A stretch of 64,000 nt of DNA from IMG/VR virus record IMGVR_UViG_3300020200_002792; one strand, written 5' to 3'. Shown here piece after piece: positions 11,117 through 62,263 of this stretch (the first letter of the stretch is position 1; the number at the start of each line of letters is the position of its first letter). The notes under the pieces are model-generated. The model ran no database searches and was not told the DNA's origin. It saw only the letters and a list, made by a program, of their open reading frames with translations. This DNA is from a virus. Lineage: Duplodnaviria; Heunggongvirae; Uroviricota; Caudoviricetes. The position numbers and the translations under genes are program-made.

Positions 11117-11133
11117 ATTTTTCCTTTAATTAA

Positions 11134-23683: not shown

Positions 23684-23942
23684 ATGTCCTTATTTTATCT
23701 GTCAATTCTTTATCAGTAACAACAGTAAGACTATTTCTACTAGGAATAAAATAAATCATAGTATTTTCTTCTATACCTTCATCCCACACCTTCTTTGCTT
23801 CTTCATCCCTATACCAAAAAAAACTATCAATTTCATCACACTCAATAACGGCATTTTCCCATTCAACAAAATTCATAATTTCTTTAATGACTTTTGTTGG
23901 GTTATTTGTTGGAATTATTGTATCGTAGCCACCTATTTCCAT
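23661..23942 (-). CDS. hypothetical small protein
   Basis: Same-strand overlapping array. Confidence 0.3.
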   Translation of the reverse strand: MEIGGYDTIIPTNNPTKVIKEIMNFVEWENAVIECDEIDSFFWYRDEEAKKVWDEGIEENTMIYFIPSRNSLTVVTDKELTDKIRTFVYGKTW

Positions 23943-45048: not shown

Positions 45049-45075
45049 CCATCATTTATATCGTTTACTTAATTT

Positions 45076-45279
45076 TCAGTCAATACTAAATAGACCCCCA
45101 ATAGAATTTGGATAAGCACTTAAATCATCCCCCTGATACTCGCTAACTCTCACAACAGACAACCATTTATTGCTTTTCATATATTTATTCGCTTCTTCCT
45201 CATCAATAAAAACCTTAGTTAAAAACCAAGGAGAAAAAAGCCCACCATAATCATCTTCATAAATTAAGTAGACTTTCAT
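45076..45279 (-). CDS. hypothetical small protein
   Basis: 67 aa, overlaps the upstream gene stop. Confidence 0.3.
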   Translation of the reverse strand: MKVYLIYEDDYGGLFSPWFLTKVFIDEEEANKYMKSNKWLSVVRVSEYQGDDLSAYPNSIGGLFSID

Positions 45280-47345: not shown

Positions 47346-47442
47346 TAAAAAACTCCATCCGATTATAGATGGAGTATAAGAAATAAAAATAATTATTACA
47401 AGGCCAAAAAATAACCCCAGCTTTTTATGGCTAGGGTTATTG

Positions 47443-48036
47443 CTAAGGGAAAGTCAAATAACTTGAAACTGCTTTACAAAACTCAACCAAATTATTCTCA
47501 GGCCATTCAAATTTGGCAAGTTGTGCTATTAAAGCTACAAACTGAATATTGCCTTTTATATAACCTTTACCACTATCTATCCTATCTAAACTTGCCCTGT
47601 CGGGAGTGCGTGGTAATTTTGAACCAATAGTAGGCAAATTTTTAAGTTGCCATCCAGTATACGGGCAAACACCTTTTTGTTTTTCCCACTGTTCTTTAAG
47701 ATCAATTAATGTAACGCCACATTCTTTATTATTTCTTCTTATAATGTTTCGATAATGCCAACGAAAAGGCGAATATTCATCTGGTGTCCGTACTTTTAAA
47801 TTTTCAGGTCTACCACCACCTAAATGTTTATAATTATCCTTTCCTGCACATCTAAGAGAACAATAAATTTTCCTGCCTAGCTTTTCATTTCTTGATAGCT
47901 CACCAACTTCTCTTAAAAATGTTTTACCACAAATAAAACACTGAACTTCTTTTTTCATAAAAACCTCCATTATAACATAGTAAGTTATAATGGAGGTTGT
48001 CGAAATTTTATTGGAGGCGTTGGGGATTGAACCCAA
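47443..48036 (-). CDS. HNH_3-type homing endonuclease, paralog of 32654..33244; true start probably an internal Met near 47955
   Basis: CFICGK...CSLRCAG...GVCPYTG...ASLDRIDSGKGYIKGNIQFV...N. The N-terminal 25 codons of the ORF overlap the tmRNA 3' end. Confidence 0.55.
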   Translation of the reverse strand: MGSIPNASNKISTTSIITYYVIMEVFMKKEVQCFICGKTFLREVGELSRNEKLGRKIYCSLRCAGKDNYKHLGGGRPENLKVRTPDEYSPFRWHYRNIIRRNNKECGVTLIDLKEQWEKQKGVCPYTGWQLKNLPTIGSKLPRTPDRASLDRIDSGKGYIKGNIQFVALIAQLAKFEWPENNLVEFCKAVSSYLTFP

Positions 48037-48362
48037 GTGAACGTGTAATGATGATTAAGCCTCTACATGCTTATCTCCTTGTTCATTACAGTTTTAGAAC
48101 TACAAAGAGCAAAAGTCCACAAACTGTTACGACATATTTTCTCATCTAAAAGCAAGTCGTCCGCTAATAGACCAGCTAGATTTTACATCAGGCTTTTGGA
48201 CGCATCCAGCATTAGCTTCCTGAGCCTGTTGGCCGACTTAAGCAGCCAAAGAGTAAGAAACTTCCTCAATTAAGAGTAATCGCATTTTATACTGGCCTTG
48301 CGATTAACCAGTGCATGCCACATTAACCACGCAACTTACCGTTTCGAAACCAATTCGCCCCC
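48012..48362 (-). ncRNA. ssrA: tmRNA (ssrA), ~351 nt; ends approximate
   Basis: RC reads 5' GGGGGCGAAUUGGUUUCGAAACGG...GUGGCAUGCACUGG (cf. E. coli GGGGCUGAUUCUGGAUUCGACGGG...GUGCAUGCCGAGG) and ends ...CUUGGGUUCAAUCCCCAACGCCUCCA (T-arm plus 7-bp acceptor pairing with the 5' end, discriminator A). Internal tag frame ...GAG GAA GUU UCU UAC UCU UUG GCU GCU UAA = EEVSYSLAA-stop (E. coli ends YALAA). Confidence 0.65.
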
Positions 48363-48435
48363 GATTTGTCAAAGACCTACTAATCTATTTATTCTATAGT
48401 AAAAAGTTTTAAAATCAAGCCCCCTATATAGAAAT

Positions 48436-49221
48436 ATGATAAAATTCTCTGAATATTTGGACAACCAAGGCAAAATGGAAAAAACAAAAATCTCTGTGGA
48501 TGGAGATACAGGCCCAAGTCCAACAAAAGCACCAGAACCAGCCGCAAAAAAGGGCAAAAACTGGAAATGCGAAACCACTTTGGCTGAAAAACCAAAGGAT
48601 TACGCAACCAGTACACAACCAGACAAACAAATGGTTATGAAAGACAAGGACGCCAAGCCTGGTTTGGGCACTGAAGGAGATAAAAAACTAATTTATGAAC
48701 CAGAAACTCCTACAAAATCAACCGCTGATGGCATGGTAAATATCAAACCTACTTGGCCAAAAGCTACTGAGAAAACTACAGCTACAGCAGAAAGTTTTAT
48801 CAATGCCACCAAAGATATGTCTACAGAAGAGTTTGTAGCTTATTTGTCTGAAACTAAAGAAAAAGAAGAACACCCATTAAAGACAATCATTAATGCCGTT
48901 CGCTTAATGAAAGACAATGATAAGCTTACTGAAACCTTTGTAAGAGAAACACGCAGACAAGGCTCTTTGGATATTCTAGTAAATGAAATGTTCAAATTAG
49001 AAGAATCATACAAAGGTTTAGCTACATTACTTTCAGATATCAGCCATCAGAATAGACTAAACGATGCTATTAAAGAAAGCACTGAAGCACCTGCATCCGA
49101 AACAGAAGGCGAAGATAAGAAAGCAGTCGGTAAAAGGAAAGCCAAATCCATAAAAGGACAACCAATGGATATGGGAAACGATGTTGTAAGTTCTAAAGCT
49201 TCTATGTCGAACAAGAAGTAG
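48436..49221 (+). CDS. low-complexity K/E/T/P-rich protein with T4-CTS-like N-terminus (candidate internal/ejected protein)
   Basis: Starts MIKFSEYLDNQGKME. 261 aa, largely predicted disordered. Confidence 0.4.
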   Translation: MIKFSEYLDNQGKMEKTKISVDGDTGPSPTKAPEPAAKKGKNWKCETTLAEKPKDYATSTQPDKQMVMKDKDAKPGLGTEGDKKLIYEPETPTKSTADGMVNIKPTWPKATEKTTATAESFINATKDMSTEEFVAYLSETKEKEEHPLKTIINAVRLMKDNDKLTETFVRETRRQGSLDILVNEMFKLEESYKGLATLLSDISHQNRLNDAIKESTEAPASETEGEDKKAVGKRKAKSIKGQPMDMGNDVVSSKASMSNKK

Positions 49222-49236
49222 TTTTTCTACTTTCAA

Positions 49237-49377
49237 CTAACCAAAGCTGTTTATATTTGGTTCATCAGGTGGATAATAGTATTCATTACAGTTTTTATAT
49301 AAACAGATATACATTTTACACCTTGCATCCCAAGAAACGCCTCTTTGTTTGCATGATGGACAGTTATACATATACAT
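49237..49377 (-). CDS. small Cys-rich protein (46 aa), questionable
   Basis: Own translation MYMYNCPSCKQRGVSWDARCKMYICLYKNCNEYYYPPDEPNINSFG, preceded by gagg. Below the ORF-track cut-off. Confidence 0.2.
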   Translation of the reverse strand: MYMYNCPSCKQRGVSWDARCKMYICLYKNCNEYYYPPDEPNINSFG

Positions 49378-49381
49378 AGTT

Positions 49382-50041
49382 TTACCTCTCATACTTGTAA
49401 TTATCCACAAAATCTTTCAAGTGCTTCTCGTAGTCTGTAAGTTCTCCAAGAGCAAACCGTGGTGCTAATAAATCGCAATAATTTGCCAGTGTTTTGCAAG
49501 CGTGTTCATAACTGTTATAAATACCTGGATATTCTGATCTTTCATTAATATGCTTATTTCGGGCATTATCCAACCAATCATTTATGGGAACAAGCATTTT
49601 TTGCCAGCTTCCATTCCTGTGCATTGACCAGCCTGGAGATTCGACGTTCCAATGGAAGTAATCTTCACCTTCGTTACAAAAAAGATCGAAACCATCAGCG
49701 AGTGCTTGTAGTAATTCGGCATCCGTGAGATACTTGCGAGGGTGCTTCTTGTCCCAGGCTTCTTGACGACGATCATCCCATATCTTCTCATACTTCTTGT
49801 ACAAATTTTTCTCATCATCCCAATAACCATAGATAGTCCACTGCCCTGGCCACAAATGACGTGCTGATTCTTTAATCTCAACGTGCCATATCTCTTTCAA
49901 CCACTGCAAGTATGCTGGGTCTTTCCAACGTGATTCATCTTTGCCCCAAGGGTTGTTGTTGTTTTCCATGCTATTATTACAGTTAAATTGGGTCCAAGTT
50001 CTCAAATTCCAAACTAATACTTTTACCGCCTCTAGCTTCAC
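49382..50041 (-). CDS. W-rich hypothetical protein
   Basis: 219 aa with many W/K/D residues. Overlaps the dnaE N-half stop by 59 nt. Confidence 0.3.
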   Translation of the reverse strand: MKLEAVKVLVWNLRTWTQFNCNNSMENNNNPWGKDESRWKDPAYLQWLKEIWHVEIKESARHLWPGQWTIYGYWDDEKNLYKKYEKIWDDRRQEAWDKKHPRKYLTDAELLQALADGFDLFCNEGEDYFHWNVESPGWSMHRNGSWQKMLVPINDWLDNARNKHINERSEYPGIYNSYEHACKTLANYCDLLAPRFALGELTDYEKHLKDFVDNYKYER

Positions 50042-52547
50042 TTAAAAATCTGCTAAATAACAAACCATGTTCAACAGGGTCTACATCAGTAATACCAAGT
50101 ACATAACAAATTAATGAGCCTAAGTTAGAGTTGTGAGCAATAAATGAAGATGTTAAATAATTACTTTCATTCTCTACTTCAATGTCATAAACTTTGCCGC
50201 CAGAAGAAACTTTTGTTATTTCTCTCACTTGAACTAAATAACCATTGTCTTTAATTCTATAGCGATAAGATTTTTGATAATTATTTTCGGACAATCCTTT
50301 TATATGAGGAATATTAATGCTATATTCAACGTTTCTAGTATCACTTCTTTTGTCATATCTATTATAAAGATTAATAGAAGCAGGAATATCTATAGACAAA
50401 CAAATATGTCTTACCTCATGAGCCATTCTTACTGAACTTGTAGTAAATTTTATTTTATTTTTGTCTAATCCACCATCAGTAAGAAAAAATCCTTTTAAAA
50501 ATGCCAGTTTTAATTTCTTAGGCAAATTAAACACAACATCTGGAACGTGTTTGGTCTGCGCAGTTAGTTTATAATCACAAAACAATTCTTTCATCAATTT
50601 TTTAAGAAGAAGGTTAGTCGAATGAAACTGGACAAGTTTTTTAGTTTTTGAATAATATCTTCTCATGCAAAGCCCGAATTCATCTTCGAACATATGTCTA
50701 CAGAACTCAAAAACATCCGTGTTTTCGCTATGAGTACATAAAGAAACTCTATTAGGAGCATTTGTTATAAAAAATCCATTGCCACAAAACATGCCAATAA
50801 ACGTAGCAAAATCTTCATTCCATTGAATAAATCTGTTTATTTTATATTTCTTATAATTATTCGTATAACTTATCTTATTTTCTGTTATATCTAAATTTTC
50901 TCCATATTTAGCCAAATCAATAATTTCTGGCACTCCTTCTTTTATATCAAATCTAGGAATAAACAACCAATCTCCAACTTCAATTTGATCGACTGGAATC
51001 CAGTTCATATCTCCAGTAGGTTCCAGAGTTAATTTTACTTTTTTCTTATTCTCCTCTGAATAATGATCGAATTTATGATCTATTCTTTTCTTCTCACACA
51101 ATATTTTATGGTCAGAAGTAAAAGATTCTCCTTGATTGAATCCATAATATGTCTTTATATTAATCAACTCTTCATCACAAGGATATTCGAATAAATTCAA
51201 TATTTTCCTTTCCTTGCCGCTTGCGCTGTAAACCAAATCACCAAGTTTGGCTTCTCCTAATTTTTTCACTTTCCCATTAGGCATGAAAAGCAAATTATTA
51301 TAATGGCCACAACCTCTGCCCGGCCCATAAGCATCACTTCCGTCACCCCATCCTAGTATCTCAGGACAAACTCTTATAGCCTCATCCATAATCTGTTTTT
51401 GAATCAAAAAATAAGAAGAAAATTCCTTATGGCATATCAAATTATATTCTTCTTTTAATCTATTTAAATATTCTCTAGTTGTTGGCAAGCCTCTTTCTTT
51501 AAATCCTTGTATCATCAAATCTTGCAATTTATCGTCATCATTATCAAGTTTAGGCAACTTCATTGATGTATCAAGCTGGACATTACCTGCTTTTCTGGCT
51601 ATTTCAACAGTATTCATCTTAGCTTGTTTGAAAATGTCATAATCTATCTCTTGATAATCTTTAGCCCATTTTTCATTTAATTCTTCTTCAGTCTTCATCC
51701 ATAAATTACTGTCTTGCAGTTCAAAGAAATCTTTATAATTATCATCCGTCATTTTTTTCTGAATTTCTTTTATGGTATTTTTTGTTTGCACCATCAACAT
51801 TAATCTTTGAAATTGGCTATCGCCTGGTGAAAGATAATGGCAGTCATTAGTTAAAATTATTTTCAATCCATACTTGTCAGCAGCTTTAATAATGAATAAG
51901 TCATAAGGCTTCTGTTTTACAAAATCCAAAAGCATTATTTCCAGATAAAAATACTCCTTACCAAACATAGAAATGTACTTTTCTATCATTTGGTAGCCAG
52001 CTTCTTCTCCACCATTCTCAAATGCCTGTCCTATTTCGGAAGCATAACAACAGGAAGTGAATATAATGCCTTCTTTGTACTTTAAAAGCTGTTCATGATT
52101 GACTCTAGGTTTATAATAAAAACCTTTGTTCCAAGCTAAAGAAGAAAGCGTAACTAAATTGCTATATCCTGTTAAATTATAAGCCAAAGCTAATAAGTGA
52201 AAACCCCTTCTTCGCATCAACTTAAGTTCTTTGGGATTTAATGAATCTAGATATTTCTGCAATTCATTTTCAGAAGAGTATTCGATTTGCAAAGGATTAA
52301 CATAAAACTCAATTCCGAAGATGGGTTTTAAAGATTTATTTTTATACGAATCATCTTTCTTATTGGATGCTTTACAGTATTTAATTTGATTTGGAGGAGC
52401 CGCTAACATGCCATGATCAGTTACACATAAATAATCTCCATGTCCTTTCCAATATGCTGCATATTCTGAAATTTCCCCAAAACCATCTAGTAAAGAGTAT
52501 GAACTATGAACATGAAGCGGCTCATATCCAACTATTTCATTTTTCAT
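49983..52547 (-). CDS. dnaE: DNA polymerase III alpha (DnaE), N-terminal part (PHP domain onward); contains an intein and ends 11 aa after the position equivalent to E. coli ...NPERVS
   Basis: PLHVHSSYSLLDG and CVTDHGML (PHP motifs), KPIFGIEFYV, ILTNDCHYLSPGDSQFQRL (VATNDVRFIDSSDFDAHEIRV), SYFLIQKQIMDEA, YGPGRG[intein]SNLGSLICYVLGITDVDPVEHGLLFSRFL ([35 protein letters not shown]). Confidence 0.85.
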   Translation of the reverse strand: MKNEIVGYEPLHVHSSYSLLDGFGEISEYAAYWKGHGDYLCVTDHGMLAAPPNQIKYCKASNKKDDSYKNKSLKPIFGIEFYVNPLQIEYSSENELQKYLDSLNPKELKLMRRRGFHLLALAYNLTGYSNLVTLSSLAWNKGFYYKPRVNHEQLLKYKEGIIFTSCCYASEIGQAFENGGEEAGYQMIEKYISMFGKEYFYLEIMLLDFVKQKPYDLFIIKAADKYGLKIILTNDCHYLSPGDSQFQRLMLMVQTKNTIKEIQKKMTDDNYKDFFELQDSNLWMKTEEELNEKWAKDYQEIDYDIFKQAKMNTVEIARKAGNVQLDTSMKLPKLDNDDDKLQDLMIQGFKERGLPTTREYLNRLKEEYNLICHKEFSSYFLIQKQIMDEAIRVCPEILGWGDGSDAYGPGRGCGHYNNLLFMPNGKVKKLGEAKLGDLVYSASGKERKILNLFEYPCDEELINIKTYYGFNQGESFTSDHKILCEKKRIDHKFDHYSEENKKKVKLTLEPTGDMNWIPVDQIEVGDWLFIPRFDIKEGVPEIIDLAKYGENLDITENKISYTNNYKKYKINRFIQWNEDFATFIGMFCGNGFFITNAPNRVSLCTHSENTDVFEFCRHMFEDEFGLCMRRYYSKTKKLVQFHSTNLLLKKLMKELFCDYKLTAQTKHVPDVVFNLPKKLKLAFLKGFFLTDGGLDKNKIKFTTSSVRMAHEVRHICLSIDIPASINLYNRYDKRSDTRNVEYSINIPHIKGLSENNYQKSYRYRIKDNGYLVQVREITKVSSGGKVYDIEVENESNYLTSSFIAHNSNLGSLICYVLGITDVDPVEHGLLFSRFLSEARGGKSISLEFENLDPI
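50130..51311 (-). mobile_element. LAGLIDADG intein in DnaE at the GPGRG/S site (394 aa)
   Basis: Starts CGHYNNLLFMPNG, ends FIAHN followed by SNLGS. LAGLIDADG blocks FIGMFCGNGFFI and LAFLKGFFLTDGGLD. Junction codons checked against the DNA. Confidence 0.8.
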
Positions 52548-53527
52548 TTCTTACTTATAAACCTTATGCCCTTTTTAGTCAACCATTCCTCAAAATCTGC
52601 CAAACAATATTTTCCGCTTTTACTGTTATTTTCAAAAGCTTCTAAAGGTCGTAAATTTTCTAAACAATTAATGAGCGATAAATCATATAATCCATAATCT
52701 ACAAAAGCTTTTATAGGCCAAATGTGATCAATATGCCATTTATCATTCTTAATTTTCTCATAATTTGGGTGATTCAAAATGTGTTCTTGCAATTGTTTAT
52801 AATCATATCCCAACAACGTCGCTGTCCTTTTATTCTTGACTCTTCCAGTGGCATTCAAAGACATTCTAACTAATTTATAACACCTTTGACGGAAAATAAG
52901 CTCATTTGCTAATGCCTTTCTGTCACTTCGCCATTCATAATGATTTTTTCCTGATCTGCTTTTAATAGAACATTGTAAACACATACCACTTTTTCTAAAG
53001 TTACCCCAAGTAACAACAGATTTCTCTCCACACTTACAAATATAATCTAATTTTTTATTAGCTTTCTCATATCGGCTCAGAAGAATACAACCTTTTTCTA
53101 CAAATTTTTGGGCAACATAATCATGACTTAAAGTTTGTTTTTCAGAAGATTTTTTATTACCACATTTTTTGCATCTATTGCCTGATTTAAACCTCCAAAA
53201 AGTAATTTTAGATTCTCTCCCACATTTACAAACATATCTTAAAGGAATTCTAGCATTTACATATTCTGTTTCTAACAATACACATTTATTTTCCTTAAAA
53301 TATTGCCTAACATAATCAATACTTAATCTAAATCTTTCAGACTGCTTCCTAGCATGACATTTAGAACAAAAAATTGATTTTCTAAAATTAATAAAACTTT
53401 TAACAAAAACATTACCACAAACACAAACATATTCTAGTGGCAACTTTATATCTTGGCATTCTTTAGACAAAAGAGTACATTGTTTTGATTCAAAAAAGTT
53501 TTTAACATCTTCATAAGTATATTTCAT
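52544..53527 (-). CDS. zinc-ribbon-repeat HNH endonuclease
   Basis: Four tandem ~45-aa modules (Y.C.CG......F...G..C..C). Then HIDHIWP...N...N HNH core. Confidence 0.55.
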   Translation of the reverse strand: MKYTYEDVKNFFESKQCTLLSKECQDIKLPLEYVCVCGNVFVKSFINFRKSIFCSKCHARKQSERFRLSIDYVRQYFKENKCVLLETEYVNARIPLRYVCKCGRESKITFWRFKSGNRCKKCGNKKSSEKQTLSHDYVAQKFVEKGCILLSRYEKANKKLDYICKCGEKSVVTWGNFRKSGMCLQCSIKSRSGKNHYEWRSDRKALANELIFRQRCYKLVRMSLNATGRVKNKRTATLLGYDYKQLQEHILNHPNYEKIKNDKWHIDHIWPIKAFVDYGLYDLSLINCLENLRPLEAFENNSKSGKYCLADFEEWLTKKGIRFISKK

Positions 53528-53547
53528 ACTTTATCATAGTAATTCCC

Positions 53548-54261
53548 CTAATCAATATCCGGTAACATGAAGCTGTGCATGGTTCCATAAATCACACCCA
53601 TTCTAGGGAAGAAACAATCATGCCCGGCAGAAGTTTCAAGAATAGAATTTTTTTTCAATGCTTCGCTTACCCACCAAGGACTTGAACGATTGCCAATGAA
53701 CAGTTTGCATCCAGCTATAATCTGAGCTAGCTCCATATAATCTTGTATTGGATAAAAAGGGATATGACCAGCTATTGGGCAAAAAATATCATGTTCATAT
53801 TTAAACCCAACAAAAACTGCATTTTTACCATATTTTTCAACAATTGTACGCCAAGGAAAATGACTTGTTGTATACCTTATACTTCTATGCATTATAACTT
53901 GGGCAACATACTTTGGTTCTGGAACTTTAATCCAAGGTTCTTCTAGAGGATGTTCTGGCATGTCATAACAATTTGTATGCATTTCCGCCAAATTCTTACC
54001 TTGTCCAAAGCATCTTCTCCATTTATCTAGATTTTCTCCCACAACATGTTGCTTCCATTCTACACTTTTAATATATGATTGATATTCAAGAAGTGGTTTC
54101 AAAACTGCAACTCTATCAGGGGTCATTCTTCCTTGTGGACCGGAAGGAAATAAAACTAAATGCCCACCGCCTAATGCTTTAATTAAAGTAAGGCCAGCAA
54201 TTAAATCGCCTATGTCACCAGTATGGCTAAAATACTTTATTACTTTTTGAACATGTAACAC
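53548..54261 (-). CDS. short GT9-like (heptosyltransferase-fold) protein, third paralog
   Basis: HTGDIGDLIAGLTLIKALG... and ELAQIIAGCKLFIGNRSSPWWVSEAL resemble the GT9 N- and C-terminal signatures. Only 237 aa. Confidence 0.35.
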   Translation of the reverse strand: MLHVQKVIKYFSHTGDIGDLIAGLTLIKALGGGHLVLFPSGPQGRMTPDRVAVLKPLLEYQSYIKSVEWKQHVVGENLDKWRRCFGQGKNLAEMHTNCYDMPEHPLEEPWIKVPEPKYVAQVIMHRSIRYTTSHFPWRTIVEKYGKNAVFVGFKYEHDIFCPIAGHIPFYPIQDYMELAQIIAGCKLFIGNRSSPWWVSEALKKNSILETSAGHDCFFPRMGVIYGTMHSFMLPDID

Positions 54262-54277
54262 AAAAAGTATTTATTAA

Positions 54278-54490
54278 TTAATCAGCCTTTTTAGTAACAC
54301 TCTTTTTCCACTCTTCAAACTCATTTTGAATAGTCATTGCTGCATTTTCCAGTTCTTTCAAATCAGACTGGAATTTATCATAAACTACCTTAAATTCAGC
54401 CTTTAAACGCTTTTTTTGTTCAGCAATTTCAACTATCTTCTTGGAAAATTCAACAAAGCTATCACTTAATAGAAATTCAACTGGTTCCAT
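54278..54490 (-). CDS. hypothetical small coiled-coil protein
   Basis: Same-strand overlapping array. Confidence 0.3.
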   Translation of the reverse strand: MEPVEFLLSDSFVEFSKKIVEIAEQKKRLKAEFKVVYDKFQSDLKELENAAMTIQNEFEEWKKSVTKKAD

Positions 54491-54698
54491 TTTTACCCCT
54501 TATTAACAGAGTAAATTTATTTCCATTTTTATCGTTAAATGTAATATTAGATTCGCCCTCAAGAGTTATTGTTACCTTGTTATCCATATTTAATTGAGAA
54601 TAAAAAACAATAGGTTCATCATTACCAAATTGAAAGCAAAATTCCAGCTTTTTAGATTTATTATTTAACCAAAAGTTATCAAAAAACATAGGCAACAT
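54477..54698 (-). CDS. hypothetical small protein
   Basis: Same-strand overlapping array. Confidence 0.3.
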   Translation of the reverse strand: MLPMFFDNFWLNNKSKKLEFCFQFGNDEPIVFYSQLNMDNKVTITLEGESNITFNDKNGNKFTLLIRGKNGTS

Positions 54699-54891
54699 TG
54701 TCCTTTATTGTAATTTCTTTAGCTTTACCAGTCATCACAAAATATGGTTGACTCTTTCTTATCCTGCCATGAGTAAACACATTGCAGAAAATATTATCTA
54801 CCAAAAAACATTTGTTGTGATAATGAACACTAATTACTGGTTTGCCTGCTTTTTTACTAGCTGGCTTATTATAATGGTAAAAGAAGGTCAT
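54679..54891 (-). CDS. hypothetical small protein
   Basis: Same-strand overlapping array. Confidence 0.3.
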   Translation of the reverse strand: MTFFYHYNKPASKKAGKPVISVHYHNKCFLVDNIFCNVFTHGRIRKSQPYFVMTGKAKEITIKDNVAYVF

Positions 54892-55580
54892 GAAAAAAGA
54901 TACTCCGGTGGTTCAATCATTTCTACTATGTTAGCCTTATCCGCAAATAATTGTAAGGGCAAGTAGCACAATATCTTTTTAAGCCCCGAATCATAACTTT
55001 TCTTGCCTGAATCTCGCTTAAACCTCAATTCTGCACCTGGGCATTCTTCGGACTTGAAACACCTATTTTTGTCATGTAATTCAGAATCACTCATCAACCA
55101 TTCTTTCAAAACCTTTACATAAGCTGGTTTCATCAATTCTGGATATGGAATCATCATTAGTTTTTTCCATGAATTATCCAAAACATTATAATAAATGCCA
55201 TCAAACTTAAAATCCCTTGCTATAAAATCAGCTTCAATTTTTGAATTTCTTAGAATTAAATTATTTACTTCATCTTTTCCTGGATATGGTTGCAACAAAG
55301 CACACCCTATGTCCGTTCCACTGTTTGGCTGTCTGAATTTATTTTGGCAATATAAATAATTACCATCTACCAAAGTCTTTGCATCTCTTTTGTTATTTTT
55401 ATCTTCTTTTTCTGAACATTCTTCCCAATTTTTGATATTTTGTCCTTTATAGGGTATTCCGTGAAAATTAATGGTATCAAGAATCCAATTTTCTACTAGT
55501 TTTGATTTTTTAAGTCGGACTGGAAATGGTAATTTGTGCAAATCCTCATACGAATTCATTAATGATGTTAATTTATCCAT
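54888..55580 (-). CDS. hypothetical protein
   Basis: No recognised motif. Confidence 0.3.
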   Translation of the reverse strand: MDKLTSLMNSYEDLHKLPFPVRLKKSKLVENWILDTINFHGIPYKGQNIKNWEECSEKEDKNNKRDAKTLVDGNYLYCQNKFRQPNSGTDIGCALLQPYPGKDEVNNLILRNSKIEADFIARDFKFDGIYYNVLDNSWKKLMMIPYPELMKPAYVKVLKEWLMSDSELHDKNRCFKSEECPGAELRFKRDSGKKSYDSGLKKILCYLPLQLFADKANIVEMIEPPEYLFS

Positions 55581-55618
55581 AAATGATAAATTAACACAAT
55601 CATTAAATTAAAACAATA

Positions 55619-57232
55619 TCATTTATAATCATCGTATTCAAGTCGTTTCATTACAACAGTATCTTTATCTGCATCCTTGCCAACACACAAGAATACAACT
55701 TCATCGCCACCATAATTTCTACTAGCAAGCACAATTTCACTGCCCCATAAAGAATACAAAGCAGTCATTGTTTCCCTAGTATATCTTTCTTCTAACATCC
55801 TGCCATCCCAAACATGTTGTAAAAGCATCCAGCCTTTATTTCTGTGATTAGGATCGGTTAATCTTATATCAGGAAGACCTCTATTTAACTTACTTCTTAC
55901 TAAATTATTCTTAATTTTCTTGAAACTTTCTGGCGTATCCCCTCTGTTTTCAATAACATGATCACCATTAGGCTGTCTCTTCCATTCAAAGAACTCGTAC
56001 TTCTGGCAGAAATCTTGTGTGAAAAATTCATTAATCAACATCACATCATCATAATATTTCCTAACTTCAAATACTTTTTCCCTACCTTTACCCAACTTTT
56101 CATCCCAATTTTCTTTTTTATTCAAATCTCGACAATTTTCCCATTCATCTCCAAATTTACCTTTATCCCATCTATCTTCTATATCCATAAGAAGTTGGAA
56201 CCCAAGTCTATACGGATTAGCACCATATTTGTCACCTAAAACCATCATTTTGTGTTTTGCATATTCAATAATACCACATCCATAATTTGTACCAATCATA
56301 TCTGCCCAACCACGGCGGCACATCATGTCAAAATCGCCATAACTTGCAAATCCCTCATTAATTGTCTTAGTCATTCCTTGAGGACTAAAATACAAAGCTT
56401 CATCATAAAGCATGCTTGCAATATCAGCTTGCCACGGTTTTAGAGGAGCATAATTCTTTATAAAACCAAATATATCCTTTTCTGGTTCGGCAAAAATACC
56501 CAAATCCTTAATTTTATCAATATGCTTTATTCTTTCATCTTCTTTTTCTTTAAATTCTTTGGTATTAAAATAAGGTTCCATGTAATCATGACCCACAGGC
56601 ACCATTACTCTTCTTGGCAACTCATATTCTTTTTTATCTTGAATAATTGGTTCTTGAATTTGTCTTTCATCCCATATCTTTACTGGATCAATCAATGTTT
56701 CAATTGCCAAAATATTATCAATAAATTCAAAAACCGTCTCTGCTCCGTATCTGTCAATATATTTTCTAATTCTATTTCCGTGATTGGCCATCTTATTCAT
56801 CATGCCAGTATTTGTTGGCTTGAACACTATGTTGTTTTTAAAGAAATCATTATGAAATGTAGCATGAGCAACAACTGTAGCATTATCTAAAAGCGTATTT
56901 GAATTCAAAAGATACATTACACAAGGAGATGTGTTGATCACGATTTCGAACACTCTTTGCATGCCATATTCATAACCTTTATGAAATTCTTCGTATGCCA
57001 TTCCAAACCGCCAATGAGGATAACGATTTGGAAAGCCGTTATAAGCCACAATCTCGCTCATCTCGTCATAAGTTAGTTTTTGGATAATGGTAGGATAAAA
57101 ATCGGCACCGGCTTCACGACAGGCAACAAGAATCTTAGAAAATAAATCTTTTTCAATTTCTGTTAAGTGCTGCCCAGGAACAGTAGCATTTCCTGAAAGT
57201 AATGGGGCACCACGACCAAATTTTGAATACAT
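55619..57232 (-). CDS. SpoVR/YcgB family protein
   Basis: ADFYPTIIQKL..DEM.EIVAYNGFPNRYPHWRFGMAYEEFHKGYEYGMQRVFEIVINTSPCVMYLL matches the SpoVR N-terminal signature. Operonic with YeaH-like and PrkA-like genes. Confidence 0.7.
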   Translation of the reverse strand: MYSKFGRGAPLLSGNATVPGQHLTEIEKDLFSKILVACREAGADFYPTIIQKLTYDEMSEIVAYNGFPNRYPHWRFGMAYEEFHKGYEYGMQRVFEIVINTSPCVMYLLNSNTLLDNATVVAHATFHNDFFKNNIVFKPTNTGMMNKMANHGNRIRKYIDRYGAETVFEFIDNILAIETLIDPVKIWDERQIQEPIIQDKKEYELPRRVMVPVGHDYMEPYFNTKEFKEKEDERIKHIDKIKDLGIFAEPEKDIFGFIKNYAPLKPWQADIASMLYDEALYFSPQGMTKTINEGFASYGDFDMMCRRGWADMIGTNYGCGIIEYAKHKMMVLGDKYGANPYRLGFQLLMDIEDRWDKGKFGDEWENCRDLNKKENWDEKLGKGREKVFEVRKYYDDVMLINEFFTQDFCQKYEFFEWKRQPNGDHVIENRGDTPESFKKIKNNLVRSKLNRGLPDIRLTDPNHRNKGWMLLQHVWDGRMLEERYTRETMTALYSLWGSEIVLASRNYGGDEVVFLCVGKDADKDTVVMKRLEYDDYK

Positions 57233-57240
57233 GTTAATCC

Positions 57241-58458
57241 TTATAAAGACATGTCAAATAAAACAGCTTCTTTTTTGCCTAAAAGTTCAATAATAGCTTT
57301 TTTAATAGCCAAGTTGCGTTCGTCATCTGACAATTCATCAGGTTCCCAACTTCCAGAAGAATAATCAATACTTTTTTCTTTTCCTATGGAAACTGATCTG
57401 TAATTAGCTTTATTCTCCAAATTATCATCAACAAATTTCTTCAAACTTCTTTTATAATCATAAGCCATAATCTGAGTGATACCAAATAGATTGCAGACAT
57501 TAGGAGGAAATTTTTCTTTCAAAGTATTCAGAAAAACATCATTATCTTCATCATAATTATCCCCATCCGTGAAATAGAACACATAAATATTCCATTTTTC
57601 TGGAGGAAATCTGTCTATAAATTGATTAGCCATTAATTTTAAACAGCTACTGCAAGTTGTACCGCCGCCATACCTATATGAATAAAATTTCTTTTCATCA
57701 AGTTCCTGAGCAACTGTATCATGCCAAAAATAACATCTCTCAACTCGTTCATAGAAATGCCTAATCCAAACATCAATCCACCAACACATGTCACTAACCA
57801 CATTACATTTCCAATCATCCATAGAACCAGAACCGTCCCTGCCAAACATAATTACTGCATTGCTACTAGGCTTTTTAATTTCCTTCCATTGTCTAAACCT
57901 GAAATCTCTATCGATTGGAGTTATCAGTTGGATAGGCTGATTTAATCCAGGAAGTTGATGCAAATTATTGATTTCACCTGTAGCACACAAACGCCTTAAA
58001 GCTTCCAACATGGTCCTGCGAAGATGTCTTAAGCTATCTGGACCATTTAAAGATATGTTATTGTATTTTATATCGAATTCATCAACCGTATCATTTTCTT
58101 TGGGTCTAAGATCGGGTAAACACAGTTGGTCCTTCATGAATTGAAGTATATATTCCATAGGAACACTTACCTCAACTCCTTCGCCTTCTTCTTGCCCTGC
58201 ACCATTGCCTTTTTCACCTTCTTTATCACTATCTATAACATCGCCTTTTTTACCAGGCCCACGACCAATACCAGTTGTTGGATCACCATAAATAATGTGC
58301 GGAGTATTAATGCGTGGTAAAGCTATAGACATATGACCATTTTTACCCTTTTTGGCAGTAAAACGTCCCGTATCGAAAAACTTTTTCAGGGCTTTACGTA
58401 AGTTTCCTCCTATAACGTCCCAAAAATGTTTTCGGTCTATTTCAATATTTTTTGGCAT
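57241..58458 (-). CDS. YeaH/YhbH (DUF444) family protein
   Basis: IALPRINTPHIIYGDPTTGIGRGPGKKGDVID... resembles DUF444. Middle gene of the prkA-yeaH-spoVR arrangement. Confidence 0.65.
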   Translation of the reverse strand: MPKNIEIDRKHFWDVIGGNLRKALKKFFDTGRFTAKKGKNGHMSIALPRINTPHIIYGDPTTGIGRGPGKKGDVIDSDKEGEKGNGAGQEEGEGVEVSVPMEYILQFMKDQLCLPDLRPKENDTVDEFDIKYNNISLNGPDSLRHLRRTMLEALRRLCATGEINNLHQLPGLNQPIQLITPIDRDFRFRQWKEIKKPSSNAVIMFGRDGSGSMDDWKCNVVSDMCWWIDVWIRHFYERVERCYFWHDTVAQELDEKKFYSYRYGGGTTCSSCLKLMANQFIDRFPPEKWNIYVFYFTDGDNYDEDNDVFLNTLKEKFPPNVCNLFGITQIMAYDYKRSLKKFVDDNLENKANYRSVSIGKEKSIDYSSGSWEPDELSDDERNLAIKKAIIELLGKKEAVLFDMSL

Positions 58459-58465
58459 TTATAGC

Positions 58466-61400
58466 CTAATCCTTATTGCTTTGAGTACCAGCAAATAGAC
58501 TGCCAACATAATTTAATACATCCGTGGCAGACTGCTGATTATATTTATACTGATCTATTAATCTCTTCTTGACCAAATCAATCTTTTCTTGCAAATCAGG
58601 TTGAACAGTACCAGCAGACTCCACATCTAATGAAGACAATTTAACATGTTCCTTGACATCATCAAATAGTTTAGCTTTCAAAGCTTTTTTCAACTGCTGG
58701 TCACTATCCCATCTAAACTTCTCGCCTTTATTAGCCAAATCACCGATAAAAGCAGCTATAGAAGTTCTAAAAGCGTCAATGCCTCTTTCTGGAACGTCAA
58801 TCTTTTCTTCAATTGACCTCATTAACTTCTCGCTAGGTGGTTCTTCCCTTTGAGTGAATGGGTTCTTGATTTTAGATTTCCTAATATATGCCATCACATT
58901 ATCGATGTAATTAGCACAAATTCTTTCAAGAGCCTTGGCATCACCGCTTAAAGCTTCTCTTACCTCATCTTTTAAAATTTCATTCAATTCTTGTATTGTT
59001 AGCTCCACACAGGTATGGTATCTAGCTAATTCTTCTTTATCTTTGATCAAAGCGTGATTATCCAATCCTTCTCTAATTTCATTCATAACCATAAAAGGAT
59101 TAATATAATCATAATTTGCACTCAAACAATTGCTAATCTTATCTTGTGTATACCTAGCACTGATACCAAATTCCATTCCCTCTTCTGGATATTTGTCCTT
59201 ATATTCCTTGACTGTTTCTTCATTAAACCCAGGTAATATTTCGCCATTATACAACTTAGCTTTCTGTACTGGTGTTAATTTACCTTCTTTATCTGGAGAT
59301 AACCTTGTTAGAATTGTCCACAATGCAGCGACTTCAATAGTATGAGGAGCAATATGTTGTGGAACTTTGCCTTCGCCATAATCTTGCTCCAAAACTTTAA
59401 TTTCATCAGCCAATCTTGTCAAGTATGGAACGTCTATCTTAACAGTACGATCTTTCAAAGCTTCCATGAAAGGATTGCCGAGAAGTTTCTTGTACTCTGG
59501 TTGATTTGAATGGCCCAAAAGCATCTGATCCACAGAAACTTGACTAAACTTCTTAGGTTTAATTTGTTTCTCTTGGCTTGCTCCTAAAAGATCATATAAG
59601 AACTCTTGTGCCAATTTCAGCATTTCAATGAATTCAACTAATCCTCTATTACCAACACATAATTCGCCATTAAAACCAAACGAATTATGGCTAACAAAAC
59701 CGTTGGCCCAATAAGCATGTGTTTCAGGAACGCTCAAATCATAAACATTAATTTTACCTACTTTAGATATGCTTTGGATTGGCAACCAAATAAATTCATC
59801 AGTTAATATTTGTTTTAATGTTTGATAATCAACATCATCATGTGATACTTCTATACTTTCCAAGAAATGTGCCAAAGTTTCATAAGCAACATTAGGTTTT
59901 CTTATTGCATCATGCAAACTACCATTATATTTGCTAATCAAACTAGCCTTATTAGTAGCTTTTTTAAACAAATTAAGCATCAAAGGCTTAATATTAGGCA
60001 AAACATCTACATTAGGAGATGCTTTAGTATCAGTCAAATATCCAGCAGTAAATCTTTTTTCCAAAGAAGGAATAAATTTCAATAATTTGTTGACATTTTT
60101 TCCATAACAACGAACTCGCCAACATCCTTCGTCTTGATATATACCGGATATTACACCAAATGCAAGCAAAACAGATTGAACTTGATCACATAAAACTTCA
60201 GAACAAGAAACAAAAACAGATGTATTAGAACCATTGTTGTTTCTTAAATTTCCATCTGTCTCAAACAATCCCCGCAAAAATTCTGCAACTATAGGAGCAG
60301 GAGAAGCTAAGATACAATCTGGAATGGTCTTAAAAGCAGCATGAGAACAAACCCCTAAAACTTCTTTAAACCAAGATACAAGTTTATTACAACAAACTCT
60401 AGCCACTCCGCTATGATCTTCACGTTGATCGTTTCTTAATTCAATATTGAAACATTCTTGGCATAAATCAATAAAGTCTTGCCTTCTATCATCTTCTTTT
60501 TGAGTATACCCAAATTCATAATTATGAGAATTTTCATTAACATAAATATGGCCATCTCCAGTCCACAAACCTAATAAATATGCTAATTTCTTAGTAACTT
60601 TAGTTGGGAAAATTAAATTATGCTTTTCATTTCCATACATTTCTGGATTAAATGGAGGCAGTTCTACCTCTTTACCAGCCTCCATTTTTAAATATGGACT
60701 TGCTCCTCTAATTAAAGCAATATAATCTCCACTATTTAAATGTTTAACATGTTTCCAAACAACTTGACCATTTTCTAATGTCAAAAACCTATGTTGTTTC
60801 GTACAAGTAATTGAATATCCCAACTTAGTTTTAACTTTATAAGCAGTTTTCTTCCCGCCATTATAAACACTATTAATAGAATTTAATTTATCCTTATCAA
60901 AACTTTGCACCATCAAATCAGAATAAGCAAAACAATCTGCTTTTAATTCATTAGGAACAAACTTTTTAATTTTTCCAATGCCATTGTTTGTAAAAATTAA
61001 AGTATCTCCAGCAACACATCTCGCATCAGCGTCACTGCCAAAATGGGCAAGATTTCTAAAATTAACATCACCAGTTAACTCTGTAGCATCTTGGTTTTTT
61101 TCATCTTTAGGTTGGAAAGTACCAATACCAACTCGATCTGATTCGGAGTGAACCTTTCTCATTACAACGATATGTTCTTTTAATACTTTTTCCCAATCCC
61201 CATCATACAAATTCATTAGCTCATCCATGAATATCTTACATCTTGGGCACAATTCTCCATCACATTTCAACCTATAAACCTTATTTCTTTGTTCCTTAGG
61301 CAAACTATCAAGGTAAACCTCATTTAACTCTGCAAACATCTTAGTTCTGATATTTTGCGGAACTAACTTAATTGGGTCTTCATTCATAGGACAACAATCT

Positions 61401-61876
61401 TCGTCACTAATAAAAACCTTTTGAGGAAGTTTAATCCATTTAAAGGAATACCAAGCTCCTGCATCTGTCCTTGAATATCTTTCCAGACCCTTTTTAAGAA
61501 GTCTCGCTATAGTTGATTTAGCTGAGCCTACTGGACCGTGTAACAACAAAATACGCTTTTCAGTACCATAATTACCTGCTGCACCTTTAATAAACTTAAC
61601 AATACTATCTAATGTTTCTTCTAAACCAAAAATGGGTACTTCTTCGTCATCAAAAAACTTATAATGATTAAGACTCTTGTGGTATTTTATGAAAGGCTCA
61701 TATCCTTTAGAACAAACCATATCATAAATTCTCTGATAAGCTGTTCTGACAAGCAAAGGATTTTCAAAAACCTTTCCAAGATATTCGTCAAATGATATCT
61801 TTTCATGCAAATTAGCGTATAAATTTTTATCGAATCTCTCTGCAAGCTTACTTAAAGAGTCAAATTTCTTTTCCAT
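58466..61876 (-). CDS. PrkA/YeaG-type AAA+ serine protein kinase interrupted by an intein (extein ~691 aa)
   Basis: N-terminal AAA block ILLLHGPVGSAKSTIARLLK. Extein length after intein removal fits PrkA (~640-700 aa). Confidence 0.75.
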   Translation of the reverse strand: MEKKFDSLSKLAERFDKNLYANLHEKISFDEYLGKVFENPLLVRTAYQRIYDMVCSKGYEPFIKYHKSLNHYKFFDDEEVPIFGLEETLDSIVKFIKGAAGNYGTEKRILLLHGPVGSAKSTIARLLKKGLERYSRTDAGAWYSFKWIKLPQKVFISDEDCCPMNEDPIKLVPQNIRTKMFAELNEVYLDSLPKEQRNKVYRLKCDGELCPRCKIFMDELMNLYDGDWEKVLKEHIVVMRKVHSESDRVGIGTFQPKDEKNQDATELTGDVNFRNLAHFGSDADARCVAGDTLIFTNNGIGKIKKFVPNELKADCFAYSDLMVQSFDKDKLNSINSVYNGGKKTAYKVKTKLGYSITCTKQHRFLTLENGQVVWKHVKHLNSGDYIALIRGASPYLKMEAGKEVELPPFNPEMYGNEKHNLIFPTKVTKKLAYLLGLWTGDGHIYVNENSHNYEFGYTQKEDDRRQDFIDLCQECFNIELRNDQREDHSGVARVCCNKLVSWFKEVLGVCSHAAFKTIPDCILASPAPIVAEFLRGLFETDGNLRNNNGSNTSVFVSCSEVLCDQVQSVLLAFGVISGIYQDEGCWRVRCYGKNVNKLLKFIPSLEKRFTAGYLTDTKASPNVDVLPNIKPLMLNLFKKATNKASLISKYNGSLHDAIRKPNVAYETLAHFLESIEVSHDDVDYQTLKQILTDEFIWLPIQSISKVGKINVYDLSVPETHAYWANGFVSHNSFGFNGELCVGNRGLVEFIEMLKLAQEFLYDLLGASQEKQIKPKKFSQVSVDQMLLGHSNQPEYKKLLGNPFMEALKDRTVKIDVPYLTRLADEIKVLEQDYGEGKVPQHIAPHTIEVAALWTILTRLSPDKEGKLTPVQKAKLYNGEILPGFNEETVKEYKDKYPEEGMEFGISARYTQDKISNCLSANYDYINPFMVMNEIREGLDNHALIKDKEELARYHTCVELTIQELNEILKDEVREALSGDAKALERICANYIDNVMAYIRKSKIKNPFTQREEPPSEKLMRSIEEKIDVPERGIDAFRTSIAAFIGDLANKGEKFRWDSDQQLKKALKAKLFDDVKEHVKLSSLDVESAGTVQPDLQEKIDLVKKRLIDQYKYNQQSATDVLNYVGSLFAGTQSNKD
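59684..61018 (-). mobile_element. LAGLIDADG intein in PrkA (445 aa)
   Basis: Starts CVAGDTLIFTNNG, ends GFVSHN followed by SFG. LAGLIDADG blocks LAYLLGLWTGDGHIY and EFLRGLFETDGNL. Confidence 0.75.
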
Positions 61877-61930: not shown

Positions 61931-62263
61931 TTAAATTTTTCCGAAATCAAAATTAGCATCATTATTGAAATCATTAATGTCATTAAAAGGTTGTGTTCCC
62001 ATATGAGATGCCGCTTCTGCCCTGCGACGTTCACCTTTAGCCTGTTCCATGTTATGATCAGCCACATAAGAAAAAGAATCAGCTTTGCTGGTTCCTCTTG
62101 GATTAGTAAAAATAACTTCTAAACAAGCAGTTGGTAATTGAATTTTTCGCTTAGACTTGCAATTAGGGCATTTCACTTTACTATATTTGCCAGTAGCATC
62201 ATATGGAACTAAATCTATATAAACTAAATCACATTTTTTACACGAAAATCGATATGAAGGCAT
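61931..62263 (-). CDS. FmdB-like zinc-ribbon protein
   Basis: YRFSCKKCD...VKCPNCKS: CxxC...CxxC within the first 40 aa. Confidence 0.35.
   Translation of the reverse strand: MPSYRFSCKKCDLVYIDLVPYDATGKYSKVKCPNCKSKRKIQLPTACLEVIFTNPRGTSKADSFSYVADHNMEQAKGERRRAEAASHMGTQPFNDINDFNNDANFDFGKI

Follow-up and report, generated by a model that had tools for sequence, protein, structure and literature searches.

A PrkA-DUF444-SpoVR gene module, with an intein in prkA, in a lineage of very large tailed phages

We analysed a 64,000-nucleotide stretch of viral DNA (IMG/VR record IMGVR_UViG_3300020200_002792; the window, by which we mean this whole stretch) that encodes, one after the other on the minus strand, a PrkA/YeaG-family AAA+ protein, a DUF444 protein and a SpoVR/YcgB-like protein (Table 1). 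An earlier note on this DNA, made from the letters alone, had given the coordinates and strand of the three genes, and the table of open reading frames (ORFs) agrees with them exactly. The genes are separated by intergenic gaps of 7 and 8 nt, and each is preceded by an AAGGAG or AAGGAT ribosome-binding site. A scan for promoters and terminators at the triad detected fewer promoter-like sites than in shuffled sequence and zero terminators, and gave no information about the transcription unit. We are nearly certain that the locus is an intact, co-transcribed, phage-encoded PrkA(YeaG)-YeaH(DUF444)-SpoVR(YcgB) module, and that it forms a fixed syntenic block in widespread, very large myovirus-like phages.

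Table 1. Features of the triad locus in the window
Feature	Position	Strand	Extent and remarks
prkA (PrkA/YeaG-family AAA+ precursor)	58466..61876	minus	1136 aa; 691 aa after splicing
PrkA N-extein, holds Walker A	61019..61876	minus	aa 1-286
Intein, class-1 with LAGLIDADG homing endonuclease (predicted)	59684..61018	minus	PrkA aa 287-731, 445 aa
PrkA C-extein: remainder of AAA+ domain and PrkA C-terminal domain	58466..59683	minus	aa 732-1136
DUF444 (YeaH/YhbH-like) gene	57241..58458	minus	405 aa
SpoVR/YcgB-like gene, SpoVR_C domain at C-terminal side	55619..57232	minus	537 aa
Small Zn-ribbon ORF, 5' neighbour of prkA	61931..62263	minus	110 aa

Profile searches with Pfam upheld the three family assignments of the earlier note. 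The PrkA precursor matched AAA_PrkA (PF08298, E=3.6e-72) in two stretches with the intein between them, followed by the whole of the PrkA C-terminal domain (PF06798, E=1.7e-65, profile positions 1-255 of 255); the intein itself matched Intein_splicing (E=5e-18) and LAGLIDADG_3 (E=4e-16). The second protein matched DUF444 (PF04285, E=8e-61; 206.8 bits against a gathering score of 27), and the third matched SpoVR (PF04293, E=1.7e-98; 330.5 bits against 27) and SpoVR_C (PF24755, E=5e-8; 33.3 bits against 27.6). There was also a sub-threshold match to ORC6 (19.1 bits, cut-off 22.2). Because all of the family matches other than ORC6 were far above the Pfam gathering scores, they are not due to chance. 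The PHROGs database holds one family for each triad gene, with matches of PrkA to phrog_22605 (E=1e-92) and of DUF444 to phrog_19072 (E=2e-58).

The triad proteins scored below the NCBIfam cut-offs for equivalogs, the profiles of proteins equivalent to the well-studied bacterial ones. PrkA, scored as the unspliced sequence, reached 166.5 bits against a cut-off of 576 for NF011999 (E. coli-type YeaG); the DUF444 protein reached at best 280 against 388 for the PRK05325 subfamilies and 214 against 468 for spore_yhbH; and the SpoVR protein reached 157 bits against 679 for NF008737. Since every equivalog cut-off was missed, the three proteins are divergent family members rather than orthologs of the E. 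coli or Bacillus proteins. On these profile scores, the window PrkA is a member of the PrkA/YeaG family and not a YeaG equivalog.

The DNA is that of a tailed phage of the T4-like capsid lineage, with hallmark structural genes on the same contig as the triad. One, at 9641..11116, is for a major capsid protein of Gp23 type (phrog_138; Pfam E=2e-83); another, at 12057..12707, is for a prohead (head maturation) protease (phrog_207). Composition across the window is even, at ~34% GC, and the genes are co-directional. Among the 50,697 records of the phage collection that we searched, the closest relative is a 595,163-bp 'uncultured phage', LR756511.1, with identities of 78% for the major capsid protein, 66-67% for PrkA, 57% for DUF444 and 56% for SpoVR. 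The part of the window from 20 to 62 kb, with genes for DnaJ, aldehyde dehydrogenase, a thiamine pyrophosphate (TPP) enzyme, DnaE, an AAA protein and the triad, is collinear with 309-349 kb of LR756511; the first 20 kb, including the capsid block, has its counterpart elsewhere in that genome. The locus was recovered from several JGI, ENA and Logan data sets: at least three gave, by independent assembly, an identical 1136-aa PrkA accompanied by DUF444 and SpoVR, and three more contained partial copies; given these independent assemblies, the locus is not an assembly artefact. The JGI samples 3300020193, 3300020197 and 3300020084 are probably metagenomes from Lake Tanganyika, and the phage is of a freshwater type. 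Contigs with proteins identical to those of the window are up to 74,250 bp long, and relatives in the clade reach 540-670 kb. A tRNA scan of the window found zero tRNA genes.

The chance that the stretch is bacterial chromosome, the outcome that the earlier note had named as able to overturn its reading, or a chimeric mis-assembly of phage and host, is close to nil: the triad is typically cellular, and one homolog lies on a contig labelled as archaeal, but the capsid and protease genes, the collinearity with a phage genome, the uniform composition and orientation, the recovery of the locus from several independent samples, and the median of 62% GC in the nearest bacterial loci against 34% in the window led us to reject contamination and chimerism. 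The archaeal label belongs to a 546,492-bp contig deposited in a 'Crenarchaeota archaeon' metagenome-assembled genome (MAG), which encodes a phage-clade PrkA (P0077) and is probably a mis-binned megaphage genome.

We found PrkA in 17 records of the phage collection, all 17 of which also had a DUF444 match. The carriers include the Thermus myoviruses phiYS40, TMA, YS40_Isch and phiLo, the Thermus siphoviruses MN1, Lalka8, Lalka27a and Lalka27b, the Ralstonia jumbo phage RsoM2USA, and the megaphages LR756511, LR756502, LR745206 and LR756504. In phiYS40, the annotations read 'SpoVR' and 'serine kinase', with the DUF444 gene alongside. The record of 'Enterobacter phage LAU1' has YeaG and YeaH at its very edge, and given this position they look like host flank. 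The three genes are clustered in LR745206 and LR756504. In the Mahaphage-like LR756502.1 (642 kb), SpoVR (~520 kb) lies ~245 kb from PrkA and DUF444 (~274-277 kb), and the module is thus not always contiguous in phages. A nucleotide search of the triad against phage genomes with megablast returned no match; only the protein level was informative.

The Thermus and Ralstonia triads resemble that of the window in that all three genes are phage-borne and clustered. They are distant from it in sequence (PrkA 25-32% and SpoVR 22-27% identical) and have no intein. The order in the Thermus phages is DUF444-SpoVR-(x)-PrkA, unlike that in the window, whereas RsoM2USA (ORF30-29-28) has the same order as the window.

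The earlier note had proposed a survey of phage databases for the co-occurrence of the three genes. We scanned IMG/VR by alignment with PrkA, replacing an earlier scan with SpoVR as a single protein that gave 3 loci, and identified 377 PrkA-encoding stretches. We examined the best 80 of these 377, in which PrkA is 56-66% identical to the spliced window extein. The order PrkA, DUF444, SpoVR on one strand was present in 75 of 75 testable loci; the remaining five of the 80 end within 2 kb of PrkA. Pseudogenised triad genes were not seen in relatives. The closest intein-free PrkA homologs, 65-69% identical over the extein in the full-length alignments made, lie on contigs that measure 542,969, 546,492, 586,250, 587,351, 590,099, 595,163, 596,617, 623,153 and 669,797 bp. 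In LR756511 and in the uncultured megaphage contigs of 540-670 kb, the neighbourhood is the same as in the window, running Zn-ribbon, PrkA, DUF444, SpoVR and, further on, DnaE and AAA. Two contexts (contigs of 79 kb and 669,797 bp) have small ORFs, and sometimes a Macro-domain gene, between PrkA and DUF444 and read Zn-ribbon - PrkA - (small ORFs) - DUF444 - SpoVR - ... - DnaE(PHP) - AAA. Some relatives differ from the window by small ORFs or by a Macro-domain gene at this position. The Macro-domain gene occurs between PrkA and DUF444 in the closest PrkA relative (L005 12188..12847, Logan SRR24472945) and is not present in the window.

The small gene upstream of prkA distinguishes the phage loci from the bacterial ones. 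Of the 80 phage loci, 73 have a homolog of this ORF upstream of PrkA; it was detected in 0 of 80 bacterial loci. The window ORF has a weak match to Zn_ribbon_8 (E=2e-4) that is below the Pfam cut-off, and relatives have a gene with a weak Zn_ribbon_8 match one or two genes upstream of PrkA. The encoded protein could serve the module as a fourth component restricted to phages, or as a regulator.

The phage proteins are also well separated from their cellular counterparts. Identity of the nearest cellular PrkA proteins (Chloroflexota, Planctomycetota, Myxococcota and Calditrichota) to that of the window reaches a plateau at 49-53%, and the nearest cellular DUF444 and SpoVR proteins are ~35% and ~39% identical. 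By comparison, PrkA proteins of the phage clade, taken from IMG/VR and from protein-database matches, are 56-69% identical to the spliced window extein. This gap indicates an old viral lineage rather than a recent host capture; with no cellular PrkA above ~53%, we ruled out recent capture from a host. Judged by these identities, the module looks like an old, vertically inherited component of the viral lineage.

Without its intein, PrkA aligns along nearly its whole length with a protein of solved structure. The spliced extein (691 aa) matched PDB 9xip_A with E=1.8e-205, residues 16-684 aligning with residues 36-690 of the chain and unbroken across the splice junction; the entries 9xip, 9xiq and 9xir are of a 692-aa chain titled 'Serine protein kinase'. 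In alignments, the Walker A motif GPVGSAKST (G114-P-x-G-x-x-K120-S121) is invariant among the phage homologs, including those of the Thermus and Ralstonia phages, as are the N298-R-G-x-x-E303-x-x-E306 block and the QE, H/N and DR motifs. Across the triad, the catalytic-type residues do not vary among 37-40 clade homologs.

The earlier note had described PrkA as an AAA+ serine kinase. The AAA+ part is borne out by PF08298 and the Walker A motif. The kinase part is disputed, as kinase activity was absent from both Bacillus proteins examined (PMC9512850, PMC13001217). E. coli YeaG is reported to autophosphorylate. B. subtilis PrkA had no kinase activity and degraded casein slowly, in an ATP-dependent manner that required Walker A K108; PrkA function requires the Walker A/ATP site (PMC9512850). 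PrkA of B. anthracis, purified to a high degree, was neither a kinase nor a protease; it oligomerises with ATP and is placed in clade III of the AAA+ proteins, and the protease activity reported for PrkA was not reproduced with the pure protein (PMC13001217).

The intein in PrkA has the size and is of the LAGLIDADG type given in the earlier note. It is inserted after Arg286, well past Walker A, and 11 residues of extein separate it from the invariant NRGxxExxE block downstream. With an insertion between these two elements, unspliced PrkA cannot form the AAA+ fold. The splicing residues are complete (Cys1, block-B TKQH at intein positions 73-76, C-terminal SHN at 443-445, and Ser+1), and their retention argues that prkA is kept functional. 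NCBIfam TIGR01445 and TIGR01443 match the intein, and both of its LAGLIDADG motifs have their Asp (LWTGDGH at 151, LFETDGN at 251) and are kept in homologous inteins. The element is, as predicted from these residues, a class-1 intein competent to splice and equipped with a LAGLIDADG homing endonuclease. Its G+C content at third codon positions (GC3) is 0.17, compared to 0.26-0.29 in the PrkA exteins.

Inteins at the same site are present in ~1120-aa PrkA proteins of Planctomycetota-type bacteria. These have the same insertion site (...D-x-R / C...H-N / +1) and the same LAGLIDADG endonuclease as the window intein, to which they are 43-44% identical over their full length. They differ in that the +1 residue is Cys, whereas the window has Ser at +1 and a phage-type extein; their own exteins are 52% identical to that of the window. 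One of them (P0005) is labelled as from a Gemmataceae MAG, and with homologous same-site inteins in bacterial MAG proteins, PrkA inteins were already in the databases. A literature search for PrkA inteins found none, its results being swamped by eukaryotic PRKA/AMPK papers. The sequence relationships suggest that the intein probably moved between cellular and viral prkA genes.

The insertion site is vacant in many relatives. The closest PrkA relatives, P0012 and LR756511 (P0019), are intein-free, as are many others of ~694 aa. There is an unrelated intein 8 residues downstream of the window site in P0094 and P0119, and another at a further site in P0006. SpoVR homologs of ~930 aa (P0130, P0131 and P0147) also bear inteins. 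In all, the relatives have at least three distinct intein insertion sites in PrkA, plus inteins in SpoVR.

The density of selfish elements in the window is unusually high. Four intein-containing genes lie within ~20 kb (41335..61876): prkA, both parts of a split DnaE gene, and an AAA ATPase gene with a Hom_end_hint-type intein. The DnaE parts are a PHP/N-terminal part (49983..52547) and a finger/HhH C-terminal part (41335..45048), each with its own LAGLIDADG intein; between them are the intein-bearing AAA gene (45276..47345) and small ORFs, whereas in LR756511 the DnaE parts are adjacent and followed by the AAA gene. There are free-standing HNH/homing endonuclease genes at 8078..9544, beside the capsid gene, and at 52544..53527, and a NUMOD3/TnsA-like ORF at 40464..41306.

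In the DUF444 protein, a disordered linker rich in Gly and Glu (~aa 37-98) joins an N-terminal region to a C-terminal domain. An AlphaFold model built on a 40-sequence alignment has a confident α/β domain at residues ~190-360, with predicted local distance difference test (pLDDT) values of 85-92 over residues 200-360. Foldseek matched this domain to vWA domains with a probability of 1.00; among them were Rea1-MIDAS and NorD, which belongs to the NorQ-NorD AAA+ complex. The residues of the metal ion-dependent adhesion site (MIDAS), D208-x-S210-x-S212, T267 and D298, are all present and are invariant in 40 clade homologs. The modelled fold and these residues identify the C-terminal part of DUF444 as a vWA domain with a complete MIDAS motif. 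A PDB sequence search found no solved relatives of DUF444 or of SpoVR.

The model of SpoVR has a pLDDT of 82 and a predicted template modelling score (pTM) of 0.77, and a Foldseek search with it against the PDB gave no significant match. H123-A-T-F-H127 is part of a single long helix and N292-E293-G-F-A-S-Y of a helix further along the chain, with ~165 residues between the motifs. We aligned the window protein with YcgB of E. coli, three proteins from phages and six from diverse bacteria; both motifs were kept in YcgB, in diverse bacteria and in other phages. The window protein has the motifs found throughout the family, PHW, YE(I/M)VIN, H-x3/4-H-x-x-FFKNN and NEG(W/F)A(S/T). These are intact in the window, YcgB, RsoM2USA and most of the bacteria, and are degenerate in both Thermus phage proteins.

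This arrangement resembles that of gluzincins (the M1, M32, M4 and DUF885 folds), which likewise have two His residues on one helix and a Glu, in N-E-G-(F/W)-A, on a later helix. N-E-G-F-A-S-Y resembles the motif that supplies the third zinc ligand of M1 aminopeptidases, a likeness that we treated as a lead and not as a test. SpoVR differs from gluzincins in the residue after the first His, which was Ala or Val in every homolog examined and never the Glu of HExxH, as well as in the ~165-residue distance between its motifs, the missing profile match and the non-significant Foldseek result. A Pfam search at E<=10 with the whole protein and two fragments matched no peptidase family, only SpoVR, which leaves the zincin link without sequence-level support; given the missing catalytic Glu, we do not file SpoVR as a peptidase. 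On the basis of the model, SpoVR is possibly a zincin-derived protein in which metal binding may occur, and not a canonical peptidase.

The families, order and orientation of the window genes are those of the bacterial yeaG-yeaH-ycgB or prkA-yhbH-spoVR genes of E. coli, Shewanella, Pseudomonas and Bacillus. The agreement with the bacterial operon that the earlier note had pointed out held in all bacterial loci with the three genes, 48 of 48 having the same order and strand. The bacterial and window modules share the Walker A motif, the MIDAS residues and the His/His/Glu set of SpoVR, and the spliced PrkA matches a solved PrkA over its full length. The window module differs from the bacterial one in being phage-encoded, in the extra Zn-ribbon gene upstream and in the intein in prkA. 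The three genes make up one operon in the majority of bacteria and are cofit (r>0.7) in six bacteria (bioRxiv 10.1101/072470), and the bacterial phenotypes concern nitrogen, carbon and osmotic stress, not phage resistance (bioRxiv 10.1101/072470, PMC13001217).

A second comparison is with MoxR AAA+/vWA-MIDAS systems (RavA-ViaA, NorQ-NorD and CbbQ-CbbO). As in the window, these have an AAA+ gene beside a gene for a vWA protein with an intact MIDAS, and the MoxR-vWA-metallopeptidase pairs of jumbo phages add a peptidase-like third element, as SpoVR does in the window. In the window, unlike in those pairs, this element is a separate protein and has no catalytic Glu. PrkA, whose C-terminal domain is unique, makes up an AAA+ family separate from MoxR, and the comparison with MoxR is an analogy of how the proteins may work, with no claim of membership.

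By these comparisons, the triad most likely encodes a protein-remodelling module, built of AAA+, vWA and zincin-like parts, with host physiology as its target. The intein would excise itself after translation, a prerequisite for the AAA+ fold, and the spliced PrkA would assemble into an ATP-driven AAA+ oligomer. DUF444 would serve as a vWA/MIDAS adaptor that bridges the PrkA ring to a client, as vWA partners do for MoxR-type ATPases. SpoVR, with its putative His/His/Glu metal site and no catalytic Glu, would be an effector or substrate-recognition subunit, or else a client. What the analysis shows directly are the gene identities, motifs, modelled folds, conservation and synteny; a complex of the three proteins, clients for it and an influence on the host are inferred.

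The operons in bacteria are under RpoS/NtrC/sigma-E type control, from which the phage module is presumably free; its expression from the phage genome, beside replication genes, would release the pathway from the stress-dependent control of the host. The module would then bring the infected cell into a nutrient- or osmotic-stress-adapted state, or keep it there, and so sustain a long infection. The triad is located in a replication and metabolism block (DnaE, helicase, AAA), away from the structural genes, and the window also has proteostasis and envelope-stress genes (DnaJ, PspA/IM30, SPFH). A latent period of 270 min is reported for the triad carrier RsoM2USA (PMC8504454). It is plausible, as the earlier note proposed, that a starvation or persistence pathway of the host is remodelled by the phage. 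This mechanism, with control of stress adaptation in the infected cell as its function, draws on analogy, and we hold it tentatively, at somewhat less than even confidence. For the explanation as a whole, covering the identity of the module, its mechanism and its role in the phage, we lean slightly towards its being correct.

Several points weigh against the interpretation just given. The biochemical activity of PrkA is contested in bacteria, with reports of kinase activity for YeaG, weak protease activity for B. subtilis PrkA and neither for B. anthracis PrkA. We found no functional experiment on any phage copy in the literature, and physical interaction of the three proteins is proposed by analogy. 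In SpoVR, the placement of H123, H127 and E293 at zinc-ligand positions is putative, and the spacing between the two His residues is one residue longer in E. coli-type proteins.

In a bolder form of the proposal, which we regard as doubtful, the triad would be one ATP-driven protein-processing machine, kept by the giant-phage clade in a diverged version of its own, together with the Zn-ribbon subunit, among its core genes and used to reprogramme the cell's proteome. PrkA would drive it as the motor and YeaH would be the vWA/MIDAS adaptor; SpoVR, a subunit derived from a zincin, would bind metal and peptide and might cleave in a non-canonical way. If true, this would explain why purified PrkA alone lacks robust kinase or protease activity, would give two domains that have long been of unknown function a fold and a role, and would make the repeated invasion by inteins (at least three sites in prkA, and spoVR) a mark of genes that are essential to the phage.

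Of the other functions considered, the one that fares best, unlikely as we think it to be, is that of a virion-assembly chaperone, in which PrkA and its vWA partner would fold, process or assemble structural proteins with SpoVR as a processing-peptidase-like subunit. The AAA+/vWA-MIDAS/metallopeptidase-like architecture parallels the MoxR-vWA-metallopeptidase pairs of group 2.2 jumbo phages (PMC7824862), and MoxR-vWA systems have been proposed to act in jumbo-phage virion assembly and in tail development of the Acidianus two-tailed virus. The vWA fold of DUF444 and the modelled, possibly zincin-like fold of SpoVR would fit this function, as would the strict conservation in the clade, which is expected of a core morphogenesis function. 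However, the capsid genes are ~45 kb from the triad in the window and ~175 kb away in LR756511, and a separate pair of genes in the window, for an AAA ATPase and a DUF2201_N metallopeptidase-like protein, fits the system described by Iyer et al. Also, the cellular homologs act in non-viral stress physiology, and SpoVR has no catalytic Glu.

We give a slightly lower probability to a role in counter-defence or competition between phages, in which the module would remodel, sequester or degrade defence or stress-alarm proteins of the host or of a competitor rather than tune metabolism. Large phages have many anti-defence functions, AAA+/adaptor systems are able to target specific proteins, and the occurrence of the module in at least four unrelated phage lineages fits repeated selection. 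That the closest relative has a Macro-domain gene separating PrkA from DUF444 hints at a conflict that involves ADP-ribosylation. Against this, the only PADLOC matches were those of the intein to homing-endonuclease models; the neighbours of the module do not consistently include a gene known for defence or anti-defence; and the bacterial phenotypes are those of nutrient and osmotic stress.

The idea that the triad is neutral cargo, a host-derived passenger (moron) tolerated by a very large genome and with no role in infection, is very improbable: cellular-type genes are common in huge phages, the window among them (methionyl-tRNA synthetase, purA-like, aldehyde dehydrogenase and TPP-enzyme genes), and the LAU1 copies look like host flank, but the unbroken order in the testable IMG/VR loci, the invariant motif residues, the separation of the sequences from cellular lineages, and the intact splicing residues that keep prkA functional have largely refuted it.

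There are several other genes of note in the window. An AAA ATPase gene (1075..2484) is followed by a gene for a protein with a putative DUF2201_N metallopeptidase domain (374..1117); this pair resembles the MoxR-vWA-metallopeptidase pair of group 2.2 jumbo phages and would be a second AAA+/peptidase-like system in the window. Genes of stress or proteostasis type encode a DnaJ (20769..21812) that is full-length, with J domain, CXXCXGXG motifs and C-terminal domain, a PspA/IM30-family protein (29442..30188) and an SPFH/Band 7 protein (37019..38200). Genes of metabolic type are those for an adenylosuccinate synthetase-like protein (4928..6052), methionyl-tRNA synthetase (6251..7783), a UDP-glucose dehydrogenase-like protein (22346..23182), an aldehyde dehydrogenase (23942..25396) and a TPP-dependent enzyme (26896..28542). 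Both the aldehyde dehydrogenase and the TPP-dependent enzyme are 59-62% identical to LR756511 genes at the syntenic position. A 678-aa protein (16825..18861) has a weak N-terminal match to serine recombinases (Resolvase). GC content peaks at 0.435 over 10001..12000, compared to ~0.34 overall, on the major capsid gene, which has a GC3 of 0.42 versus ~0.27 in the triad; this fits the strong codon bias of a highly expressed gene.

The earlier note knew of no characterised phage-borne copy of the triad. This holds in that none has been studied functionally. Copies are nonetheless catalogued, in the Thermus phages, RsoM2USA, the megaphages and three PHROG families. In a marine virome study, spoVR was the most abundant viral auxiliary metabolic gene assigned to sporulation, and promotion of host persistence was proposed (PMC8940887). 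The RsoM2USA paper places SpoVR and PrkA under separate functional classes (PMC8504454). We found no mention of SpoVR in the jumbo-phage literature searched, and the comparative analysis of jumbo phages by Iyer et al. (PMC7824862) mentions neither PrkA nor DUF444. Because phage copies and the idea of host persistence were already in the databases and the literature, the finding as first put forward is confirmatory rather than surprising. In the literature that could be searched, four aspects have apparently not been described: that the module is strictly conserved and syntenic throughout a widespread lineage of megaphages, that PrkA has a phage-specific Zn-ribbon neighbour, that inteins have invaded prkA and spoVR several times independently, and that SpoVR, as modelled, may have a zincin-like fold lacking the catalytic Glu. 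The vWA domain of DUF444, with its full set of MIDAS residues, likewise seems to be undescribed.

Few gene clusters without a known mechanism are as widespread in bacteria and archaea as the PrkA/YeaH/SpoVR module, and the Thermus phages phiYS40 and MN1 and the Ralstonia phage RsoM2USA are tractable systems that carry it. The structural reading, with a vWA/MIDAS adaptor and a SpoVR that may be zincin-like and lacks the catalytic Glu, supplies concrete targets for mutagenesis and could help to settle whether PrkA is a kinase or a protease. Counts of viral 'spoVR' in viromes probably mark the three-gene module and not sporulation. A giant-phage lineage keeps its own diverged copy of the module without exception, which argues that the module does something that the virus needs during infection.

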